Below are positions 25,618-55,205 of a stretch of 64,000 nucleotides of DNA, piece after piece; position 1 is the first letter of the stretch; every line of letters begins with the position of its first letter. The DNA is from Escherichia coli (GTDB taxonomy: Bacteria; Pseudomonadota; Gammaproteobacteria; Enterobacterales; Enterobacteriaceae). The stretch lies in the NCBI RefSeq assembly GCF_046105845.1, contig NZ_CP151004.1. One strand, 5' to 3'. A program made the position numbers and the translations under genes. The notes under the pieces were generated by a model. That model was given only the letters and a program-made list of their open reading frames with translations. It was not told where the DNA came from and made no database searches.

Positions 25618-26832
25618 ATGAATATCGTAAAGGCTGAAGTTTTTGTTACCTGTCCGGGGCGTAATTTCGTCACATTAAAAATCACCACTGAGGACGGTAT
25701 TACGGGCCTTGGGGATGCCACCCTCAATGGACGTGAGCTTTCCGTGGCCTCTTATTTGCAGGATCACCTTTGTCCGCAGCTTATTGGTCGCGATGCACAC
25801 CGTATCGAAGATATCTGGCAGTTTTTCTATAAAGGAGCTTACTGGCGTCGCGGCCCGGTGACGATGTCGGCCATTTCAGCGGTTGATATGGCGCTGTGGG
25901 ATATTAAAGCCAAAGCTGCCAACATGCCGCTTTACCAGTTACTCGGCGGCGCGTCTCGTGAAGGGGTGATGGTTTATTGCCATACCACCGGTCACAGTAT
26001 TGATGAAGCTCTGGATGATTATGCCCGTCATCAGGAGCTGGGATTCAAAGCCATCCGCGTGCAGTGCGGAATCCCTGGTATGAAAACCACCTACGGCATG
26101 TCGAAAGGTAAAGGTCTGGCTTATGAACCCGCAACCAAAGGACAGTGGCCGGAAGAGCAGCTGTGGTCGACGGAGAAATACCTCGATTTCATGCCGAAAT
26201 TGTTTGACGCGGTACGTAACAAGTTTGGTTTTAATGAACATTTGCTGCATGACATGCACCATCGCTTAACGCCTATTGAAGCGGCGCGCTTTGGTAAAAG
26301 CATTGAAGATTATCGCATGTTCTGGATGGAAGACCCGACGCCTGCGGAAAACCAGGAATGCTTCCGTCTCATTCGCCAACATACCGTCACACCCATCGCG
26401 GTGGGTGAAGTCTTCAACAGCATCTGGGACTGCAAGCAACTGATTGAAGAGCAACTTATCGATTATATCCGCACTACGCTGACCCACGCGGGTGGCATTA
26501 CCGGTATGCGCCGGATTGCCGATTTTGCTTCGCTGTATCAGGTACGTACTGGCTCACACGGTCCTTCCGATTTGTCACCAGTCTGCATGGCTGCGGCGCT
26601 GCACTTTGATCTGTGGGTCCCCAATTTCGGTGTCCAGGAATACATGGGTTATTCCGAACAAATGCTCGAAGTCTTCCCGCACAACTGGACTTTCGATAAC
26701 GGCTATATGCATCCGGGAGACAAACCGGGTCTTGGCATCGAATTCGATGAAAAGCTGGCGGCGAAATATCCCTATGAACCTGCTTATCTGCCAGTCGCAC
26801 GTCTGGAAGATGGCACGCTGTGGAACTGGTAA
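25618..26832 (+). CDS. rspA: Starvation-sensing protein RspA (enolase-superfamily mannonate/altronate dehydratase-like)
   Basis: Start trimmed to ATG 25618 ([40 protein letters not shown]...), AAGGA RBS, 404 aa. ORF track begins at 25585. Confidence 0.92.
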
Positions 26833-26843
26833 GGAGTAAGATA

Positions 26844-27863
26844 ATGAAAAGCATTTTAATTGAAAAACCGAATCAACTGGCAATTATCGAACGTGAAATA
26901 CCCACCCCGTCAGCGGGTGAAGTACGAGTAAAAGTGAAACTTGCCGGGATTTGTGGTTCAGATAGCCATATTTATCGTGGGCATAATCCTTTTGCGAAAT
27001 ATCCGCGCGTCATTGGACATGAATTCTTTGGCGTCATTGATGCAGTGGGTGAAGGCGTGGAAAGCGCCAGAGTCGGTGAACGCGTTGCTGTCGATCCGGT
27101 GGTCAGCTGTGGGCATTGCTATCCGTGCTCTATAGGTAAGCCGAACGTTTGTACGACACTGGCTGTATTAGGTGTGCACGCTGACGGTGGTTTCAGTGAA
27201 TATGCCGTGGTTCCGGCAAAAAATGCGTGGAAAATTCCTGAAGCAGTGGCCGATCAATATGCGGTGATGATCGAACCTTTTACCATTGCGGCTAACGTAA
27301 CCGGTCATGGTCAACCGACTGAAAATGATACCGTTCTGGTTTACGGTGCCGGTCCAATCGGCCTGACGATCGTTCAGGTATTAAAAGGCGTCTATAACGT
27401 TAAAAATGTGATTGTTGCCGATCGCATTGATGAACGACTGGAAAAAGCGAAAGAGAGCGGGGCTGACTGGGCGATTAATAACAGCCAGACACCGCTTGGC
27501 GAGATTTTCGCTGAAAAAGGCATAAAGCCGACATTAATTATCGATGCGGCTTGTCATCCTTCTATCCTGAAAGAGGCCGTAACGCTGGCTTCTCCAGCGG
27601 CACGTATTGTATTGATGGGCTTCTCCAGTGAACCGTCTGAAGTGATTCAGCAAGGAATTACCGGAAAAGAACTCTCTATTTTCTCTTCACGCTTAAATGC
27701 AAATAAATTCCCGGTCGTTATCGACTGGTTAAGTAAAGGGTTAATTAAACCAGAAAAATTAATTACCCATACGTTTGATTTCCAGCATGTTGCTGATGCC
27801 ATTAGTTTATTTGAACAGGATCAAAAACATTGCTGCAAAGTCTTACTCACTTTTTCTGAATAA
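26844..27863 (+). CDS. rspB: Starvation-sensing protein RspB (zinc-dependent medium-chain dehydrogenase)
   Basis: Start trimmed to ATG 26844 (MKSILIEKPNQLAIIER...), AAGGAG RBS, 339 aa; zinc-ligand motifs GHEF and CGHCYPC. ORF track begins at 26820. Confidence 0.92.
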   Translation: MKSILIEKPNQLAIIEREIPTPSAGEVRVKVKLAGICGSDSHIYRGHNPFAKYPRVIGHEFFGVIDAVGEGVESARVGERVAVDPVVSCGHCYPCSIGKPNVCTTLAVLGVHADGGFSEYAVVPAKNAWKIPEAVADQYAVMIEPFTIAANVTGHGQPTENDTVLVYGAGPIGLTIVQVLKGVYNVKNVIVADRIDERLEKAKESGADWAINNSQTPLGEIFAEKGIKPTLIIDAACHPSILKEAVTLASPAARIVLMGFSSEPSEVIQQGITGKELSIFSSRLNANKFPVVIDWLSKGLIKPEKLITHTFDFQHVADAISLFEQDQKHCCKVLLTFSE

Positions 27864-27920
27864 TACCAATAACGGCGAGTAAGTAGTACGCATCTTACCT
27901 CTTTTTTAGAGATAACCATT

Positions 27921-29288
27921 ATGACAATAGAAAAACACGAAAGAAGCACTAAGGATTTGGTGAAAGCAGCAGTATCGGGATGGCTGGGCACTGCGCTTGA
28001 ATTTATGGATTTCCAGTTATATTCGCTCGGCGCAGCGTTAGTGTTTCATGAAATATTTTTTCCTGAATCATCAACGGCAATGGCGTTAATTCTGGCAATG
28101 GGAACCTACGGTGCAGGTTATGTGGCGCGTATTGTCGGAGCATTTATTTTCGGCAAAATGGGCGACAGAATCGGGCGTAAAAAAGTGCTCTTTATTACCA
28201 TCACTATGATGGGGATCTGTACCACCTTAATTGGTGTGCTGCCGACCTATGCACAAATTGGTGTGTTTGCGCCAATTTTGCTGGTGACGCTGCGTATTAT
28301 TCAGGGGCTGGGGGCAGGCGCGGAAATTTCCGGTGCCGGCACGATGCTGGCGGAATATGCACCAAAAGGTAAGCGCGGAATTATCTCCTCATTTGTGGCT
28401 ATGGGAACTAACTGCGGAACCTTAAGCGCAACGGCAATCTGGGCCTTTATGTTCTTCATTCTCAGTAAAGAAGAACTGCTGGCGTGGGGATGGCGTATAC
28501 CGTTCCTGGCGAGCGTTGTCGTGATGGTCTTTGCTATCTGGTTGCGTATGAATCTGAAAGAAAGCCCGGTCTTTGAGAAGGTTAACGACAGCAACCAACC
28601 GACAGCAAAACCTGCACCTGCTGGTAGCATGTTCCAGAGCAAATCCTTCTGGCTGGCAACAGGGCTGCGTTTTGGTCAGGCTGGTAACTCCGGTTTAATT
28701 CAGACTTTCCTTGCAGGCTATTTAGTACAGACGTTATTGTTTAACAAAGCAATTCCAACAGATGCATTGATGATCAGTTCGATTCTCGGCTTTATGACCA
28801 TTCCGTTCCTTGGTTGGTTATCCGATAAAATTGGTCGCCGGATCCCGTATATTATTATGAATACCTCCGCGATTGTGCTGGCATGGCCAATGCTTTCTAT
28901 CATCGTAGATAAAAGCTATGCCCCGAGCACCATTATGGTTGCACTGATTGTGATTCATAACTGTGCGGTGCTGGGATTATTTGCTCTGGAAAACATTACC
29001 ATGGCAGAAATGTTCGGCTGTAAAAACCGCTTTACCCGGATGGCTATTTCTAAAGAAATTGGTGGTCTTATCGCTTCCGGTTTTGGTCCTATTCTGGCGG
29101 GTATTTTCTGCACCATGACGGAATCCTGGTATCCGATCGCCATTATGATCATGGCATATTCAGTGATTGGTTTAATCTCTGCGCTGAAAATGCCAGAAGT
29201 GAAAGACCGTGATTTAAGTGCGCTGGAAGACGCTGCGGAAGATCAACCGCGTGTTGTCAGAGCTGCGCAACCTTCCAGAAGTCTTTAA
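27921..29288 (+). CDS. ydfJ: MFS metabolite:H+ symporter-family transporter (full length)
   Basis: Uninterrupted 455-aa 12-TM ORF directly downstream of rspB; in K-12 (from memory) this gene is split by the Qin prophage. Confidence 0.88.
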   Translation: MTIEKHERSTKDLVKAAVSGWLGTALEFMDFQLYSLGAALVFHEIFFPESSTAMALILAMGTYGAGYVARIVGAFIFGKMGDRIGRKKVLFITITMMGICTTLIGVLPTYAQIGVFAPILLVTLRIIQGLGAGAEISGAGTMLAEYAPKGKRGIISSFVAMGTNCGTLSATAIWAFMFFILSKEELLAWGWRIPFLASVVVMVFAIWLRMNLKESPVFEKVNDSNQPTAKPAPAGSMFQSKSFWLATGLRFGQAGNSGLIQTFLAGYLVQTLLFNKAIPTDALMISSILGFMTIPFLGWLSDKIGRRIPYIIMNTSAIVLAWPMLSIIVDKSYAPSTIMVALIVIHNCAVLGLFALENITMAEMFGCKNRFTRMAISKEIGGLIASGFGPILAGIFCTMTESWYPIAIMIMAYSVIGLISALKMPEVKDRDLSALEDAAEDQPRVVRAAQPSRSL

Positions 29289-29296
29289 ATCCTCAA

Positions 29297-29325
29297 TCCC
29301 TTCTCTTACCGGAGAGGGGATTTTT
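29297..29325 (+). terminator. Intrinsic terminator after ydfJ
   Basis: 9-bp stem TCCCTTCTC / GGAGAGGGA (one G-U pair, loop TTACCG) followed by TTTTT at 29321-29325, 9 nt after the ydfJ stop. Confidence 0.65.
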
Positions 29326-29376
29326 ATTCATATAACAAAACATGTAGCTTGCCATATTTATATTTAAGGAATTGTT

Positions 29377-30837
29377 ATGGGAAATAATTTGTTATCAGCA
29401 AAAGCGACACTCCCTGTTTATGATCGTAATAACCTGGCCCCAAGAATTGTTCATTTAGGCTTTGGTGCATTTCACCGTGCGCATCAGGGCGTGTATGCCG
29501 ATATTCTTGCTACGGAACATTTCAGTGAATGGGGATATTATGAGGTCAACTTAATCGGCGGCGAACAGCAAATTGCCGATTTACAACAGCAAGATAATCT
29601 TTATACCGTTGCGGAAATGTCGGCCGATGCGTGGACGGCTCGCGTCGTTGGCGTCGTTAAAAAAGCCTTGCACGTACAGATTGATGGCTTAGAAACCGTG
29701 TTGGCTGCGATGTGTGAACCGCAAATCGCGATTGTCTCTCTGACAATCACCGAAAAAGGGTATTTCCACTCTCCGGCGACCGGACAGTTAATGCTCGATC
29801 ACCCGATGGTCGTTGCCGACGTACAAAATCCCCACCAGCCGAAAACTGCAACAGGGGTGATTGTCGAGGCGCTGGCTCGCCGTAAAGCGGCAGGACTTCC
29901 CGCATTTACCGTCATGTCATGTGACAACATGCCAGAAAACGGTCATGTTATGCGTGACGTTGTCACTTCCTACGCGCAAGCCGTTGATGTAAAACTGGCA
30001 CAATGGATCGAAGATAACGTGACTTTCCCATCAACAATGGTAGACCGTATTGTGCCCGCAGTGACAGAGGATACGCTGGCGAAAATCGAACAACTTACCG
30101 GTGTGCGCGATCCTGCTGGCGTTGCCTGTGAACCTTTCCGCCAGTGGGTAATAGAAGATAATTTTGTTGCCGGACGTCCGGAATGGGAAAAAGCGGGAGC
30201 CGAACTGGTTAGTGATGTGCTGCCTTATGAAGAGATGAAGTTGCGCATGCTCAACGGCAGTCATTCATTCCTGGCGTATCTGGGTTATCTTGCTGGATAT
30301 CAGCACATTAATGACTGTATGGAAGATGAACATTATCGTCATGCGGCATATGCCTTGATGTTGCAGGAACAAGCGCCGACGCTGAAAGTGCAGGGTGTTG
30401 ATTTGCAAGATTACGCTAACCGATTAATTGAACGCTATAGCAACCCGGCGCTACGTCATCGAACCTGGCAGATTGCGATGGATGGCAGCCAGAAATTGCC
30501 ACAGCGGATGTTGGATTCTGTTCGCTGGCATCTGGCGCATGACAGCAAGTTCGATCTGCTGGCGCTGGGCGTCGCAGGTTGGATGCGTTATGTCGGTGGT
30601 GTTGATGAACAGGGAAATCCGATAGAAATCAGTGACCCACTGTTACCTGTTATTCAGAAGGCTGTACAAAGTAGTGCCGAAGGGAAAGCGCGCGTCCAGT
30701 CATTGCTGGCGATTAAGGCGATCTTTGGTGATGATTTGCCAGACAATAGCTTGTTTACTGCAAAAGTGACGGAAGCGTACTTGTCTTTATTAGCGCATGG
30801 TGCGAAAGCGACCGTGGCGAAATATTCCGTGAAGTAA
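29377..30837 (+). CDS. ydfI: Mannitol dehydrogenase-family oxidoreductase
   Basis: 486-aa ORF with N-terminal NAD-binding region ([15 protein letters not shown]); long-chain mannitol dehydrogenase family. Confidence 0.9.
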
Positions 30838-30872: not shown

Positions 30873-31076
30873 TTAGTTCATGCCGAGACGAATCAGGTCC
30901 AGAGGTGCCAGTTTCTCTTCACAACCTTCAACAACTACGGTTTTTCCGCGGCGGATTTGCTCAGCGGTCAGACCTTCAGTATCAATCGACAGGATCTTGC
31001 CAGTGTGACCGGTGCCGCTAACCATAACACGGCTGCCAGTGGTGATTGCGTTACGGTTACGATCGTAGGTCGTCAT
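30873..31076 (-). CDS. ydfZ: Small DUF1471-related protein YdfZ
   Basis: 67-aa [70 protein letters not shown]; matches YdfZ as recalled. Confidence 0.85.
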
Positions 31077-31252: not shown

Positions 31253-31939
31253 TTACTCTTCGCTAAACCAGTCGCTGTTTTCCTGACGGATCTGGCGCAC
31301 GGATTCGCTGATTTCCTGCAAATGTTGCGTCATTGCACGTTCTACCGCATCGCCATCACGTTTTTGCAGGGCAGAGAAAATCTCAAGATGCTGGCGTAAC
31401 AGCATTTCTGGTGGAGAAACGTGGTCGAAACTCATATAGCGCACGCGATCAACGGTCGCTTTCAGGTTCTCAATGGTATCCCACGCCAGTTGACAGTCGG
31501 CAATCTGGGTCAGGAGTTGATGGAAGTTGTCATCAAGTTCAAAAAAATCATCCAGTTGTTTGCGCTCAATGGCAATGCGTTGCTGGTGAAGATTTTGTTC
31601 CAGTTGGTAGCACTGGCTTTCGGTAATCATGCTCGCCGCCCGACGCGCCACCGCGCACTCAATGGCCTGACGGATAAAACTGCCGTTGCGCACCTGGGCC
31701 ATGGAAATTTTGTTGACGTAGCTGCCACGCTGTGGACGAATTTGAATCAGGCCGTTTTCCGCCAGTTTAATAAAGGCTTCACGAACCGGCTGGCGTGACA
31801 CATTGAAACGAACAGAAACTTCTTTTTCCGACAACGGTGTGCCTGGAGCAATCAGGCAATGGACAATGTCGCGACGAAGGATACGATAAATTTGCTGATT
31901 GACAGGCTGTGTGGGATTAAGTTGCGTTTCGACGGTCAT
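31253..31939 (-). CDS. ydfH: GntR/FadR-family transcriptional regulator (RspR)
   Basis: 228-aa protein with N-terminal GntR wHTH and FCD-type C-terminal domain. Confidence 0.9.
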
Positions 31940-35078: not shown

Positions 35079-35320
35079 ATTACTTTTTTTGTATACCCTT
35101 CCGTTATAATAATTTTCAAATTTATAAATCTGATTGTTCTGAAATATGTTTAAGACTCTTTAATCTTCTTCTTACTTTAGTGAGTAAAATTCTCTGAATA
35201 TTTGACAGCTAGTTGCCTGATTTTAAATGCCTTATAACAATTGGCAGTATTCTTATTTGTCAATTATAAAAATAGCAACCAGACTTAATAAGTCAAACCA
35301 AACGCAATTAAGGAGTCAGT

Positions 35321-36858: not shown

Positions 36859-36974
36859 GCTCCGTTTAACATTCATTGAGAAAACTGATGCTACTGTGTC
36901 AACGATCCGTTATCAGTGCAGGAAAATGCCTGTTAGCGTAAAAGCAAAACACAAATCTATCCATGCAAGCATTC

Positions 36975-37001
36975 ACCGCCGGTTTACTGGCGGTTTTTTT
37001 T
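36975..37001 (+). terminator. Intrinsic terminator downstream of dgcZ
   Basis: Stem ACCGCCGG / CTGGCGGT (loop TTTA) followed by TTTTTTT at 36995-37001. Confidence 0.7.
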
Positions 37002-37007
37002 CGCCGT

Positions 37008-37049
37008 CATAAAAATCAGGCCCCTTGTACACAACTGTAACAAGGGGCC
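37008..37049 (-). terminator. Intrinsic terminator downstream of mgtS
   Basis: Perfect 10-bp inverted repeat GGCCCCTTGT-(11 nt)-ACAAGGGGCC; on the minus strand it is followed by UGAUUUUUAUG. Confidence 0.65.
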
Positions 37050-37076
37050 GGTTAGGTGAGGGATTATCTCCGTTCA

Positions 37077-37172
37077 TTAGTCATCCCATTTGTGGCTGAA
37101 ATACGCGGCCAGAAAACCAGAAAATAAAATTATTCCCAGTACGGCCATAAAAACATTCATATTACCCAGCAT
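37077..37172 (-). CDS. mgtS: 31-aa small inner-membrane protein MgtS (YneM)
   Basis: Minus-strand ORF MLGNMNVFMAVLGIILFSGFLAAYFSHKWDD with GGAGG RBS 7 nt upstream; exact match to the MgtS sequence as I recall it. Below the ORF-track length cut-off. Confidence 0.85.
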   Translation of the reverse strand: MLGNMNVFMAVLGIILFSGFLAAYFSHKWDD

Positions 37173-38680: not shown

Positions 38681-39580
38681 ATGTCGCGAAAAGATGGGGT
38701 GTTGGCGCTACTGGTAGTGGTCGTATGGGGGCTAAATTTTGTGGTCATCAAAGTGGGGCTTCATAACATGCCACCGCTGATGCTGGCCGGTTTGCGCTTT
38801 ATGCTGGTTGCTTTTCCGGCTATCTTTTTTGTCGCACGACCGAAAGTACCACTGAATTTGCTGCTGGGGTATGGATTAACCATCAGTTTTGCGCAGTTTG
38901 CTTTTCTTTTTTGTGCCATTAACTTCGGTATGCCTGCTGGTCTGGCTTCGTTGGTGTTACAGGCACAGGCGTTTTTTACTATCGTGCTTGGCGCGTTTAC
39001 TTTCGGTGAGCGACTGCATGGCAAACAATTGGCGGGGATCGCCTTAGCGATTTTTGGCGTACTGGTGTTAATCGAAGATAGTCTGAACGGTCAGCATGTG
39101 GCGATGCTCGGCTTTATGTTGACCCTGGCGGCAGCATTTAGTTGGGCGTGTGGCAACATCTTCAATAAAAAGATCATGTCGCACTCAACGCGTCCGGCGG
39201 TGATGTCGCTGGTAATCTGGAGCGCATTAATCCCAATCATTCCCTTCTTTGTTGCCTCGCTGATTCTCGATGGTTCCGCAACCATGATTCACAGTCTGGT
39301 TACTATCGATATGACCACCATCTTGTCTCTGATGTATCTGGCGTTTGTGGCGACAATTGTTGGTTATGGGATCTGGGGGACGTTACTGGGACGCTATGAA
39401 ACCTGGCGGGTTGCACCGTTATCGTTACTGGTGCCCGTAGTAGGACTGGCAAGTGCGGCACTATTGTTGGATGAACGCTTAACGGGTCTACAATTTTTCG
39501 GGGCGGTGCTCATTATGACCGGGCTGTATATCAATGTATTTGGCTTGCGGTGGCGTAAAGCGGTAAAGGTTAGAGGCTAA
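38681..39580 (+). CDS. eamA: DMT-family cysteine/O-acetylserine exporter
   Basis: Start trimmed to ATG 38681 (MSRKDGVLALLVVVVWGLNFVVIKVGL...), 299 aa, two EamA repeats. ORF track begins at 38660. Confidence 0.9.
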   Translation: MSRKDGVLALLVVVVWGLNFVVIKVGLHNMPPLMLAGLRFMLVAFPAIFFVARPKVPLNLLLGYGLTISFAQFAFLFCAINFGMPAGLASLVLQAQAFFTIVLGAFTFGERLHGKQLAGIALAIFGVLVLIEDSLNGQHVAMLGFMLTLAAAFSWACGNIFNKKIMSHSTRPAVMSLVIWSALIPIIPFFVASLILDGSATMIHSLVTIDMTTILSLMYLAFVATIVGYGIWGTLLGRYETWRVAPLSLLVPVVGLASAALLLDERLTGLQFFGAVLIMTGLYINVFGLRWRKAVKVRG

Positions 39581-39585
39581 ACCAT

Positions 39586-39629
39586 ACGCACAGAATGTGA
39601 TGTCAGCACTCTGTGCGTCTGCTTTTATC
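39586..39629 (+). terminator. Intrinsic terminator after eamA
   Basis: 9-bp stem ACGCACAGA / TCTGTGCGT (15-nt loop) followed by CTGCTTTTATC; the stop codon of the downstream minus-strand regulator lies inside the U-tract. Confidence 0.6.
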
Positions 39630-40323
39630 GCGGGAAAAAGTACTTTACCTGGAACTCGAAAATATTGCTGTAAAGTAACGAATAATCCAGCGGAATAGAG
39701 TTACTATCCACAGCCTGGGTCTGAATTTTAAGTATGGGATCCCGTGGGCTGATCCGTAAAATACTGGCGATTTCTGGGGTAGGAAAAGTAGGGGAGAAAG
39801 TTTCAAAGGTGCCAATGATTTTGATCCCGCATTCGTTCTCAATATACGAAAATTTGGATTTTTGCATATGTGCTACGGTTAAATCAGGAAAACGTGCCAC
39901 TGACATCCACGTTTCTTCTAATTGTGCTGCATTATCCTCAATGAATCGCAGTCTCTTTATGTAATAAACCTGCTCACCAGTCACTAAATTCAGCTCAGTC
40001 GCAATAGGGGGAGAAGCATCCTGCACTTCAAATTTCATAATCTGACTTCCTGCCTCCTTGCCGCTTTTATGCGCAATTTCACTGAAGCTGTTCATGTGAT
40101 CAATGTGTGCAACAAAATTCTTTTTTTGAATGTATGTTCCTGAACCATGCTTTCTATGAATAACTCCTTCGCCTTCCAGCAAGGATAATGCCTTACGCAG
40201 GGTATTACGCGAAACATTATAACGAACAGCGAGTTCAGCTTCTGACGGCAACAAATCACCAACATGCCATGAATAGCCATTGATCTCGGATTTAAGTAAG
40301 CGGGCAATCTTTTGAAAAATCAC
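39625..40323 (-). CDS. bgcR: GntR/HutC-family transcriptional regulator (wHTH + UTRA effector domain), divergent from the PTS operon
   Basis: 232-aa ORF with GTG start; N-terminal GntR HTH (LPSEAELAVRYNVSRNTLRKALSLLEGEGVIHRKHGSGTYI) and HutC-type C-terminal domain. Symbol assigned by architecture match to the bgc locus, not sequence-verified. Confidence 0.8.
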   Translation of the reverse strand: MIFQKIARLLKSEINGYSWHVGDLLPSEAELAVRYNVSRNTLRKALSLLEGEGVIHRKHGSGTYIQKKNFVAHIDHMNSFSEIAHKSGKEAGSQIMKFEVQDASPPIATELNLVTGEQVYYIKRLRFIEDNAAQLEETWMSVARFPDLTVAHMQKSKFSYIENECGIKIIGTFETFSPTFPTPEIASILRISPRDPILKIQTQAVDSNSIPLDYSLLYSNIFEFQVKYFFPR

Positions 40324-40482
40324 TTTTGCACCTTTTAAGAGCCATTGAAAACAAGGGGTTGAGTCCTGATTGGTTTATCGTATGGCCGAGTCGTTTAATT
40401 ATTACCCTGATGTTGAACAACTTTATTGCTGTATTACTGTGATCAATGTACCAGGACGTATAGCTACTGCGGGATATGATAT

Positions 40483-40495
40483 TTACACAATGTAA
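40483..40495. promoter_or_regulatory. Candidate operator palindrome in the regulator/PTS divergent promoter region
   Basis: Perfect palindrome TTACA-caa-TGTAA 27 bp upstream of the EIIB start codon; a CRP-like half-site (TGTGA at 40438-40442) lies about 45 bp further upstream. Confidence 0.3.
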
Positions 40496-40521
40496 TCTGT
40501 TATATACCAGTAAGGGAAAAT

Positions 40522-40833
40522 ATGAAAAAGATATTGTTAGTTTGCGCTGCGGGCATGTCAACCAGTATGCTGGTTAAACGTATGATTGATCATGCTAACG
40601 CTATTTCACTTGAAGTTAATATTTCCGCATTGGCGATTGCAGAGGCTAAAGGGAAAATTAAAAATAACGAAGTTGACGTTGTTTTACTTGGCCCGCAAGT
40701 TCGCTTTCAGAAACCAGAGATTGAAGCTGTTGCACAGGGGAAAATGCCTGTAGCTGTTATCGAGATGAAAGACTATGGCACCATGAACGGACAGGCAGTT
40801 CTTGAATTTGCGATGAAACTACTGCAAGAGTAA
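40522..40833 (+). CDS. bgcE: PTS EIIB component, lactose/cellobiose family
   Basis: 103-aa ORF MKKILLVCAAGMSTSMLVKRM... with phosphorylatable Cys in LVCAAGMSTS; AAGGGA RBS. Symbol by architecture match to bgcEFIHA. Confidence 0.85.
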   Translation: MKKILLVCAAGMSTSMLVKRMIDHANAISLEVNISALAIAEAKGKIKNNEVDVVLLGPQVRFQKPEIEAVAQGKMPVAVIEMKDYGTMNGQAVLEFAMKLLQE

Positions 40834-40947
40834 GAATCTAATATTATTAAACTATTACCTGAACTAACTTTTCACACATCATAAAATGGATATGGCATAC
40901 ATGCTTTATTGGGATGTATAAATATCCAGAACAGCAGGTATAAAAAA

Positions 40948-41819
40948 ATGGGATTAATGGCCTCATTCGAACGTGGAATGGAACGTTTTCTTGTTCCAGT
41001 TGCTATCAAGTTAAACTCACAAAAACATGTTGCAGCGGTGAGAGATGGATTCGTTTTTACGTTTCCAATTATTATGGCAAGTTCATTAATTATATTAATT
41101 AATTTTGCCATATTATCGCCAGACGGTTTTATTGCCGGATTACTGCATCTGAATAGCATTTTCCCCAACCTTGAAAAAGCACAAGCTATTTTTACTCCGG
41201 TAATGAATGGTTCTGTAAATATCATGTCAATTATGATTGCTTTCCTGGTCGCCAGGAATATGGCGATTAGCTATGAGCAAGATGATCTTTTATGCGGATT
41301 AACGGCAATAGGAGCATTTTTTATTGTTGGGCCGCTCAACACGGCACTACCTGGGGCGCGCCATATCCGATTACCTGGACTTCTATTAATGATGCATTCG
41401 CCAACTGCGGCGGTTCAGGTATGACGTTGGGGTTATTGTTGGCTATTTTTATCGCTTCTAAGCGTGCGGAATACCGTGATCTGGCAAAAATGTCATTTAT
41501 CCCCGGTATTTTCAATATCAATGAACCGATAATGTTCGGCCTTCCTATTGTACTTAACCCCATCATGATGGTGCCGTTTATTCTGGTTCCCATTGTTAAC
41601 TGTGCCATTGGTTACTTCTTTGTTTCGATGGAAATTATTCCACCGGTTGCTTATGCCGTGCCCTGGACTACGCCCGGACCTTTAATTGCTTTCCTCGGAA
41701 CCGGGGGAAACTGGCTGGCGTTACTGGTGGGTTTTTTATGTTTAGGTGTGGCGACAATGATCTATTTACCTTTTGTTATTGCCGCCAACAAGGTCAATAA
41801 CATGACAACTAACGGATAA
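40948..41819 (+). pseudogene. bgcF: PTS EIIC component (lactose/cellobiose family) disrupted by an out-of-frame internal deletion
   Basis: ORF-track pieces 40909-41424 and 41292-41819 align to the N-terminal ~130 and C-terminal ~160 residues of ChbC-type EIIC in different frames. Total span ~290 codons versus ~440-450 for intact EIIC; frame switch near 41333-41337. Confidence 0.75.
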
Positions 41820-41846
41820 TCCCATTTACACAGGAAGGAGATGTTG

Positions 41847-42158
41847 ATGTTTGCAGATGAAGAACTTGTTATGGAGTTACTGGTCAACGCAGGACAGGCT
41901 CGTTCTGATGCGATGGAAGCCATACGTTGTGCCGGGCAAAAAGACTGGCAGGGCGCAACTCAGCTAATGGCCAGTTCTGAATGCGCCTGTCTTCAGGCGC
42001 ATAAGATTCAGACCGCGTTAATTAGTCAGGATGAAGGCTGTGGCAAAATAGAAGTTAATTTAATTCTGGTTCATGCACAGGATCATTTGATGAATGCAAT
42101 ATTATGCCAGGATTTAGCCAGGGAAATTATTTCATTAAGAAAAGAGCTCCATGCCTGA
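41847..42158 (+). CDS. bgcI: PTS EIIA component, lactose/cellobiose family
   Basis: ChbA-like sequence (...EELVMELLVNAGQARSDAMEAIR...LILVHAQDHLMNA...); start placed at ATG 41847 because GGAAGGAG abuts the track start at 41841. Confidence 0.85.
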   Translation: MFADEELVMELLVNAGQARSDAMEAIRCAGQKDWQGATQLMASSECACLQAHKIQTALISQDEGCGKIEVNLILVHAQDHLMNAILCQDLAREIISLRKELHA

Positions 42159-42161
42159 TTT

Positions 42162-42189
42162 TTTCCTCCAGTGCGATAGCTGGAGGAAA
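42162..42189 (+). other. Intergenic hairpin between the EIIA and porin genes
   Basis: 10-bp inverted repeat TTTCCTCCAG-tgcgatag-CTGGAGGAAA immediately after the EIIA stop and 25 nt before the porin start; no U-tract follows. Confidence 0.4.
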
Positions 42190-42210
42190 TTATTACACTC
42201 TTAAGGATAA

Positions 42211-45349
<3,139 letters not shown>

Positions 45350-45375
45350 GACTTCAGGAAGATATTACGGAGATA

Positions 45376-45399
45376 TCAGGCTCTGTGATCAGAGCCTGA
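45376..45399. terminator. Strong hairpin between the GH1 gene and marB (terminator-like)
   Basis: Perfect 10-bp inverted repeat TCAGGCTCTG-tgat-CAGAGCCTGA; 6 nt from the marB stop; no clear U-tract on either strand. Confidence 0.4.
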
Positions 45400-45405
45400 C
45401 AATAA

Positions 45406-53648: not shown

Positions 53649-53786
53649 TAATTGCGGAAAACGATAAAATAGCATTCCCAGGATATCTTTATTTGCCGCC
53701 GCTGTCAGCGAACATGCTATCCTTTATGAGAATTTACTTATTACGTTGAGATAATTGCTATCCGCAATTGTATGGACAGATAATTA

Positions 53787-55205
53787 ATGCATGTACAGCC
53801 CATTTCAACTTTCCGTTTGTTCCAGGAAGGTCATCTGCTACGTAATAGCATCGCTATTTTTGCGCTAACCACGCTGTTCTATTTTATTGGTGCAGAGTTA
53901 CGGCTGGTTCACGAACTTTCTCTTTTCTGGCCGCTGAATGGCGTAATGGCGGGGGTGTTTGCCCGCTATGTCTGGCTTAATCGACTGCATTACTATGCGA
54001 TCAGTTATGTGGCAATGCTGGTTTATGATGCCATAACCACCGAATGGGGGCTGGTTTCACTGGCTATCAATTTCTCCAATATGATGTTTATTGTTACCGT
54101 CGCCTTACTGGTCGCGCGGGATAAGCGTCTGGGGAAAAATAAGTACGAGCCAGTAAGTGCCTTACGGCTATTTAATTACTGTCTGATTGCCGCATTATTA
54201 TGCGCTATTGTCGGGGCGATTGGTTCGGTCAGTATTGATAGTCTGGATTTCTGGCCTTTGCTTGCCGACTGGTTCAGTGAGCAATTCTCAACGGGCGTGT
54301 TGATCGTGCCTTGTATGCTGACGTTGGCAATTCCTGGAGTGCTGCCGCGCTTTAAAGCAGAACAGATGATGCCCGCTATCGCGCTTATTGTGTCGGTTAT
54401 TGCCTCGGTAGTCATTGGCGGAGCGGGGAGTCTGGCGTTCCCGCTGCCTGCATTAATCTGGTGTGCAGTGCGCTATACGCCGCAGGTAACATGTCTGTTG
54501 ACCTTTGTCACCGGTGCGGTTGAAATCGTACTGGTGGCAAATTCGGTGATTGATATCTCGGTCGGTTCGCCGTTCTCCATTCCGCAAATGTTCTCCGCAC
54601 GTCTCGGTATTGCCACGATGGCGATATGCCCAATTATGGTTTCTTTTAGCGTGGCAGCGATCAATTCGCTAATGAAGCAAGTTGCGCTGCGAGCCGACTT
54701 TGATTTTCTGACTCAGGTTTACTCACGGTCCGGTCTTTATGAGGCGCTGAAAAGTCCATCGCTGAAACAGACACAACATCTGACTGTCATGCTGCTTGAT
54801 ATCGACTATTTCAAAAGCATTAACGATAACTATGGACATGAATGTGGCGATAAAGTGTTAAGCGTGTTTGCCCAGCATATTCAGAAGATTGTCGGTGATA
54901 AGGGGCTGGTGGCGCGAATGGGCGGCGAAGAATTTGCTGTTGCAGTGCCATCGGTGAATCCTGTCGATGGTCTGCTAATGGCGGAAAAAATCCGTAAAGG
55001 CGTTGAACTGCAACCGTTCACCTGGCAACAAAAAACGCTTTATCTCACGGTAAGTATTGGCGTCGGTAGTGGTTGCGCATCGTACCGAACGCTGACCGAT
55101 GACTTTAATAAATTGATGGTCGAAGCCGATACATGTCTGTATCGCTCGAAGAAAGATGGGCGCAACCGTACCAGCACTATGCGTTACGGTGAGGAAGTTG
55201 TCTGA
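53787..55205 (+). CDS. dgcF: Membrane-anchored diguanylate cyclase (GGDEF domain)
   Basis: 472-aa ORF with N-terminal multi-TM sensor region and C-terminal GGDEF domain (RMGGEEF). Start is uncertain; the protein I recall as YneF may be annotated shorter. Confidence 0.8.
   Translation: MHVQPISTFRLFQEGHLLRNSIAIFALTTLFYFIGAELRLVHELSLFWPLNGVMAGVFARYVWLNRLHYYAISYVAMLVYDAITTEWGLVSLAINFSNMMFIVTVALLVARDKRLGKNKYEPVSALRLFNYCLIAALLCAIVGAIGSVSIDSLDFWPLLADWFSEQFSTGVLIVPCMLTLAIPGVLPRFKAEQMMPAIALIVSVIASVVIGGAGSLAFPLPALIWCAVRYTPQVTCLLTFVTGAVEIVLVANSVIDISVGSPFSIPQMFSARLGIATMAICPIMVSFSVAAINSLMKQVALRADFDFLTQVYSRSGLYEALKSPSLKQTQHLTVMLLDIDYFKSINDNYGHECGDKVLSVFAQHIQKIVGDKGLVARMGGEEFAVAVPSVNPVDGLLMAEKIRKGVELQPFTWQQKTLYLTVSIGVGSGCASYRTLTDDFNKLMVEADTCLYRSKKDGRNRTSTMRYGEEVV

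Follow-up and report, generated by a model that had tools for sequence, protein, structure and literature searches.

The ydfJ locus in the window

We describe here the ydfJ gene in a 64,000-nucleotide (nt) stretch of Escherichia coli DNA (the window; contig NZ_CP151004.1) and, within this gene, the attachment site of Qin-type prophages. According to the open reading frame (ORF) list and the raw sequence, ydfJ occupies positions 27921-29288 on the plus strand, starts with ATG, and encodes a 455-amino-acid (aa) MFS transporter of the MHS family. It is preceded by rspB (26844-27863, plus strand), which encodes a 339-aa Zn-dependent oxidoreductase and ends with the stop codon TAA at 27861-27863. 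The 57-nt spacer between the two genes (27864-27920, plus strand) carries no phage DNA and is identical to the K-12 rspB-ynfP spacer in a BLAST comparison. These boundaries coincide with those given in an earlier interpretation of the same DNA, made by a model without database searches (the sequence-only reading), where rspB ended at 27863 and a complete 455-aa MFS transporter began at 27921. It is very likely that this segment represents an uninterrupted ydfJ that immediately follows rspB, as in the ancestral arrangement.

All 455 residues of the product (455/455) are identical to those of WP_000151243.1 from E. coli E300010, annotated by the Prokaryotic Genome Annotation Pipeline (PGAP) as "MHS family MFS transporter YdfJ", in accordance with the earlier claim that the full-length product is encoded here. 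Strain E300010 is the closest complete genome at the rspB-ydfI locus (99.8% identity over 2.3 kb). The window was compared with K-12 over positions 20759-64000 and with E300010 over 7400-55496. A pattern scan revealed no terminator-like site in the 57-nt rspB-ydfJ spacer. Downstream of ydfJ, beginning seven bases past its stop codon, the scan found a terminator-like element (29295-29330, plus strand) consisting of a GC-containing hairpin (29295-29322, 12 pairs, 4-nt loop) and the subsequent T-run TTTATT. This pattern match corresponds to a predicted intrinsic (Rho-independent) terminator, and the terminator assigned to ydfJ in the sequence-only reading is retained as a terminator-like element only.

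No traces of the prophage were observed. The 20.45-kb interior of Qin produced neither blastn nor tblastx matches in the 64-kb window, and the 426-aa integrase of ydfJ-site prophages, used as a tblastn query against the same 64 kb, produced nothing better than E = 0.16. The window contains no Qin genes (pinQ, stfQ, dicB, relBE, intQ and others) and no DNA homologous to them. The 19-nt attachment core, considered below, is present in the window in a single copy, even if three mismatches are allowed, and a search for repeats around ydfJ yielded no flanking direct repeats, only short pairs at the level expected by chance. Thus, the absence of phage genes and att-like repeats, stated earlier from inspection, is upheld by the searches.

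The attachment core in K-12, lysogens and free phages

In the K-12 genome (NC_000913.3), the "cryptic prophage Qin" is annotated at 1632277-1652745 (20,469 bp), between rspB and the body of ydfJ; this agrees with the earlier suggestion that an approximately 20-kb Qin separates rspB from the ydfJ region and that ydfJ is interrupted. The rspB side retains ynfP (b4534, 36 aa), adjoining the pseudogene intQ, and the ydfI side retains ydfJ (b1543, 427 aa). In the alignment with MG1655, ydfJ of K-12 proved to be neither intact nor contiguous with rspB: window positions 27700-28300 yielded two BLAST alignments with the K-12 region, which overlap on 27998-28016, TGAATTTATGGATTTCCAG, and this places both the Qin junction and the attachment core. 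The core reads ...GCGCT TGAATTTATGGATTTCCAG TTATATT... in the window, ...GCGCT TGAATTTATGGATTTCAAG AGTCATG... on the rspB side of K-12, and ...CACCTG TGAA-TTATGGATTTCCAG TTATATT... on the side of the ydfJ body, so that the K-12 junctions fall within ydfJ codons 26-32. Residues 1-31 of the window YdfJ are the same as residues 1-31 of YnfP, whose last five residues, KSHAC, are encoded by the phage; residues 29-455 of the window YdfJ exactly match b1543, which starts at Met29. From the two junction alignments and these residue matches, we conclude that K-12 ydfJ is split at codons 26-32. Qin has been described as residing at the 5' end of ydfJ and removing its promoter and 28 codons (PMC6379469).

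As judged from the sequence comparisons, ydfJ codons 26-32 (L-E-F-M-D-F-Q) are the empty bacterial attachment site (attB) of a lambdoid phage family that includes Qin in K-12, the "PPydfJ" prophages of Shiga toxin-producing E. coli (STEC), and the free phages mEp460, Tritos, HannyBb and PhiR42_1. The attB core for the Qin/mEp460-type phages, unoccupied in the window, is the 19-nt segment at 27998-28016 on the plus strand. The phage site (attP) predicted from the two ends of Qin is (phage arm)…CCTGTGAATTATGGATTTCAAGAGTCAT…(phage arm), and the free phage mEp460_ev081 carries exactly this sequence, which fits the earlier statement that the site is unoccupied. In this phage, attP has the form TGAA-TTATGGATTTCAAG, with an 18-nt core, and is situated about 50 nt from the start of the integrase gene. 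The attB and attP cores are distinguished by a one-T indel in the left T-run and a C/A mismatch on the right, and they share an exact 11-mer, TTATGGATTTC (28003-28013, plus strand), which contains the ATG of Met29. In K-12, 7/2, 99.1145, AH19B041 and 98205, attL is composed of the bacterial left arm and the phage right one, and attR is the reverse. As the T indel and the C/A mismatch bound TTATGGATTTC and are sorted oppositely in attL and attR, the strand exchange must fall within this segment.

Three unrelated lysogens (7/2, O111:H8 99.1145 and AH19B041) carry an intact gene for a 426-aa tyrosine integrase at the same position. In 99.1145 and AH19B041, the two with no disruption by an IS66-family insertion sequence, the excisionase and exonuclease genes are located beside the integrase gene. 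In strain 7/2 (locus L006, 4938-6509), the IS66-family element ISCro1 lies directly beside the ydfJ-site integrase gene, in the place taken by the excisionase gene in the other lysogens, and hence this prophage is probably locked in place. A search of a phage collection with the integrase region returned mEp460_ev081, HannyBb, Tritos and PhiR42_1 at 98.8-99.7% identity, as well as several phages encoding Shiga toxin 2a (Stx2a) at lower identity; the integrase gene of mEp460_ev081 is 99.7% identical to the lysogen one at the DNA level. The att sequence of PPydfJ is given as 18 or 19 bp by Nakamura et al. (PMC8112680), in the legend of S7 Fig, where the unoccupied ydfJ is taken as attB; the core found here agrees with the sequence of that legend.

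The lysogens thus carry the hybrid junctions that are expected if attP (18-nt core) and attB (19-nt core) recombine within TTATGGATTTC. In K-12, such integration split ydfJ into the rspAB-proximal ynfP, comprising 31 YdfJ codons and five phage codons, and b1543, starting from Met29; the window shows no such event.

The exact 19-nt attB core was also observed in the ydfJ genes of three other bacteria, Siccibacter colletis, Siccibacter turicensis and one Enterobacter asburiae strain (L027, L050 and L064), and 36 of 80 species have an exact copy of the 11-nt crossover segment. Given the presence of the core or the crossover segment in these genes, targets for the Qin/mEp460-type phages could also exist outside Escherichia.

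YdfJ, its gene cluster and the K-12 remnant

A scan of representative genomes, one per species, with YdfJ as the query yielded 80 loci at 77-98% identity, nearly all from Enterobacterales, among them Citrobacter, Enterobacter, Klebsiella, Raoultella, Kluyvera, Buttiauxella, Pragia, Gilliamella and one Escherichia sp. In all 80 loci ydfJ is uninterrupted, and in 79 of them the match begins within the first eight codons. A full-length ydfJ is immediately preceded by rspB in 77 loci; the three exceptions are a locus where rspB is cut by the contig end, a contig starting just before ydfJ, and one locus with no rspB. As a rule the genes run rspA-rspB-ydfJ-ydfI, and ydfZ-rspR-ydfG often come next, the position of rspR being conserved across species; in a few loci rspA is either missing or moved downstream of ydfJ. 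The peptide encoded by the core region, TALEFMDFQLYSL, is the same in almost all 80 loci. Because rspB directly precedes full-length ydfJ in 77 of the 80 loci, the intact, rspB-adjacent ydfJ is, on this comparative evidence, the ancestral state, as had been suggested from the window alone.

The same arrangement is found in the window, where the gene order ynfC, speG, ynfB, ynfA, rspA, rspB, ydfJ, ydfI, ydfZ, rspR, ydfG, dcp is that of K-12 read from the opposite strand. The co-oriented cluster is headed by rspA (25618-26832, plus strand), annotated under this name in E300010 and encoding a ManD family D-mannonate dehydratase (NCBIfam NF043051, 742.8 bits with the cut-off of 550). The start of rspB is the ATG at 26844 by annotation, as in K-12 and E300010, and the GTG at 26820 in the mechanical ORF list; its product matches only a generic "Zn-dependent oxidoreductase" equivalog (NCBIfam NF007489, 694.7 bits). 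Downstream of ydfJ are ydfI (29377-30837, plus strand), encoding a protein of the mannitol dehydrogenase family, fructuronate reductase subfamily (NCBIfam NF011611, 649.9 bits with the cut-off of 603), and, on the minus strand, ydfZ (30873-31076), lying between ydfI and rspR, and rspR, or ydfH (31253-31939). The latter encodes a GntR-type transcriptional regulator, annotated as the repressor RspR in K-12 and annotated in E300010 as well. An Rfam scan revealed no RNA family in or near the ydfJ locus. The sole Rfam match in the window is the Hfq-binding small RNA STnc560 (36870-37083, plus strand, 281.9 bits), situated in the mgtS/mgtT/mgrR region between dgcZ and ydeE.

The assignment of YdfJ to its family is supported by the NCBIfam model TIGR00883 (metabolite/H+ symporter), where it scores 462.9 bits with the curated cut-off of 443.45, residues 23-418 covering profile positions 1-400 of 400. 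MFS_1 of Pfam matches residues 21-344 and 256-432. The AlphaFold2 model built with 28 orthologues is all-helical, with the first predicted helix at residues 10-46, a mean predicted local distance difference test score (pLDDT) of 73.5 and a predicted template modelling score (pTM) of 0.78; together with the Pfam match, it is consistent with the MFS fold of about 12 transmembrane helices. A sequence search of the PDB with YdfJ returned nothing at E <= 1e-5. YdfJ reaches no substrate-specific NCBIfam equivalog, only the MHS subfamily model passing, and it is well below the equivalog cut-offs for ShiA (270 vs 538) and ProP (224 vs 544). With scores that far below both cut-offs, its substrate is presumably not that of ShiA or ProP.

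The ydfJ gene is probably co-transcribed with rspAB, as no terminator is predicted in the 57-nt spacer and the hairpin with its T-run comes after ydfJ. Genes for a ManD-type dehydratase (RspA) and a fructuronate reductase type enzyme (YdfI) are located near ydfJ in a conserved order, as expected for a sugar-acid cluster. Judging by these neighbours, YdfJ is probably a proton symporter importing a sugar acid handled by RspB, YdfI and RspA, which probably would convert it towards 2-keto-3-deoxygluconate. L-Gulonate is the leading candidate substrate, in line with an assignment reportedly made by Wichelecki and colleagues in 2014; RspB would then be an L-gulonate 5-dehydrogenase.

In K-12, b1543 is now 20.5 kb from rspAB; an in-frame TGA precedes its ATG by two codons, and no ribosome-binding site is apparent before it. 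The start at Met29 cuts the predicted first helix, with residues 10-28, including the invariant S19-F28, being lost in the model. As the first half of transmembrane helix 1 would thus be gone, the truncated YdfJ of K-12 is probably inactive. In other strains, PGAP labels prophage-truncated copies of ydfJ as pseudogenes. Downstream of the att core, ydfJ of the window has about 27 DNA differences from K-12, all of them synonymous.

Of these differences, 17 form a dense patch within 300 nt at 28172-28472. We considered whether this cluster could indicate a recombination breakpoint exactly at the att site and rejected this variant: the cluster begins approximately 160 nt past the core, and all its changes are synonymous.

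Occupancy, history of the site and related systems

In a comparison of a 140-nt query centred on the core with 5426 complete E. coli genomes, the att core was continuous in 2011 (37%), and in 2012 with a 2.3-kb query. About 62% of the complete genomes have no continuous attB, and most of these break at query position 61, which corresponds to window position 27998. Qin has been reported in 48% of 638 strains (PMC6379469), and a list in PMC3032704 places it in ydfJ in W, K-12, B and Crooks. The empty Qin site is an already familiar strain polymorphism, located at a recognised hotspot of phage integration and described in these two studies and in PMC8112680.

The window differs from the reference genomes at other places too. 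A 5.8-kb island at 39571-45403, between eamA and marB, is found in neither K-12 nor E300010, although many other E. coli have it. Its genes are those of a GntR regulator, the IIB, IIC and IIA components of a phosphotransferase system (PTS) of the lactose/cellobiose type, a 6-phospho-beta-glucosidase and a carbohydrate porin. The PTS IIC gene is frameshifted by an approximately 451-nt deletion at 41328/41329, leaving the ORFs 40909-41424 and 41292-41819, and the porin ORF (42214-43806) stops early, at 530 aa, whereas the porin of FDAARGOS_1370 has 557 aa; hence this island looks decayed in the window. At 35080-35083, ydeJ, located between dcp and ydeI in K-12, is missing, approximately 478 bp of the K-12 sequence (1624735-1625211) having no counterpart; this position in E300010 holds no more than a small pseudogene fragment. 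At 53721-54220, about 500 bp absent from K-12 lie at the 5' end of dgcF, where other strains have a 1419-bp gene of a "sensor domain-containing diguanylate cyclase", compared with 948 bp for dgcF of K-12. Over 36000-60000, the best complete E. coli genome is only 98.7% identical to the window, as opposed to 99.8% (E300010) for the rspB-ydfI segment 27400-29700, and so the relationships of the window look mosaic.

No observation speaks against the structural interpretation of the site, though several points limit it. The view is that of 64 kb, and a Qin-type prophage may be present elsewhere in the source genome. The attB and attP cores are imperfectly matched, so that the exact positions of cleavage are inferred only. 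The invariance of EFMDFQLY is in part an artefact of ascertainment, as this peptide was among the patterns used for the search. The prophage could also be missing from the window through an assembly artefact, being collapsed or skipped at a repeat, since prophages commonly cause misassembly; nothing specific points to it here, and neither of the hybrid cores that a collapse would produce (…TTTCAAG or TGAA-TTATGG) is seen. The junction is base-for-base that of 2011 complete genomes across the att core, many being 100% identical over 140 nt, and the ORF product matches an annotated full-length protein at every residue; hence an artefact is extremely improbable. An earlier occupancy deserves more attention. 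Precise excision by the integrase and excisionase, or homologous replacement by an empty allele, would both restore attB with no scar, so a never-occupied and a precisely excised site would be indistinguishable from their sequence, and this limits the reading of the site as unoccupied and ancestral. The loss of a prophage would be consistent with the large fraction (about 62%) of complete genomes that have no continuous attB, with the intact integrase and excisionase genes retained in many such prophages, and with the mosaic divergence from other genomes along the window. Near relatives also differ: the prophage is present in 7/2 (99.8% identity on the rspB side) and 98205 (99.2%, ydfJ-ydfI) and absent in E300010 (99.8%). 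However, precise excision would be traceless, so the sequence gives it no direct support, and with all 80 other-species loci unoccupied, the empty state requires no extra event. We thus regard past occupancy as rather unlikely, albeit a possibility to be kept in mind.

The functional part of our interpretation has its own counterarguments. As a hairpin follows ydfJ, ydfI may be transcribed separately. The protein encoded by b1543 has no amino-acid change over 427 codons despite about 27 DNA differences; with no such sign of decay, the Met29-455 product of K-12 could still work, and then the intact gene of the window would bring no functional gain. However, the synonymous changes may all stem from lineages with the intact gene, and the K-12 copy has lost the upstream region on the rspAB side, including, according to PMC6379469, the promoter. 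If one adds the lack of an obvious ribosome-binding site, the TGA two codons before the ATG, the predicted loss of residues 10-28 with the invariant S19-F28, and the pseudogene calls made by PGAP for such copies in other strains, a working K-12 product becomes very improbable. YdfJ might also act outside the rsp sugar-acid pathway, for example as a K+ transporter, its proximity to rspB being incidental. This would agree with the absence of a match to any NCBIfam equivalog for a specific substrate, and TCDB entry 2.A.1.6.9 lists "K+ *" as the YdfJ substrate, as quoted in a table of PMC10971958. However, rspB and ydfJ adjoin each other in 77 of 80 loci, nearly all of which also have ydfI downstream, and this arrangement extends as far as Gilliamella, Pragia and Limnobaculum. 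Such conservation would be hard to explain with no functional link, and for this reason we hold K+ to be the less likely substrate. Besides, members of the MHS family typically carry organic acids and osmolytes. Overall, a role outside the pathway seems improbable, and import of a sugar acid remains our preferred assignment.

The result is mainly of use for annotation and strain typing. The 455-aa protein represents the true full-length YdfJ, and ynfP and b1543 of K-12 are the halves left by the integration of Qin. The empty site marks the strain as a possible host for lysogeny of the mEp460 or PPydfJ type, and some phages of these types carry genes for Shiga toxin or type III effectors in pathogenic E. 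coli. The intact rspAB-ydfJ-ydfI cluster is the right background for learning what YdfJ transports, K-12 being unsuitable for clean work. One might further speculate that occupancy of the ydfJ site is a widespread metabolic switch, with Qin/mEp460-type phages that hit the invariant codons of helix 1 disabling the uptake of a gut sugar acid (the substrate of RspB, YdfI and RspA) in roughly 60% of E. coli; we consider this doubtful. If it were so, strains like the source of the window would keep the sugar-acid pathway, excision would restore ydfJ with no scar, and the obscure role of rspAB in K-12, a natural transporter mutant, would become easier to explain.

Among known systems, YdfJ shares the full-profile TIGR00883 match and the all-helical MFS-type model with the MHS family of MFS transporters (ShiA, ProP, KgtP, TcuC), differing in that it falls far under the ShiA and ProP equivalog cut-offs. 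Qin has a parallel in Rac, also a lambdoid prophage, which is inserted in ttcA; both integrations are site-specific events at the 5' end of a gene that alter the N-terminus, and PMC6379469 treats them together. According to that paper, Rac alters the N-terminus of TtcA, whereas Qin takes away the promoter and 28 codons of ydfJ. For Qin, the PPydfJ prophages of STEC and enteropathogenic E. coli (EPEC), and mEp460, Tritos, HannyBb and PhiR42_1, attB is exactly window positions 27998-28016, but the window holds only the target, the phage itself being absent. The prophage-free ydfJ of E300010 (WP_000151243.1), CFT073 and the O104:H4 strain C227-11, used in PMC8112680, is the same gene with the same neighbours and length as in the window. 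At the ydfJ locus the window shows no difference from these three strains, and the differences are found elsewhere, for example, in the PTS island and in the overall divergence.

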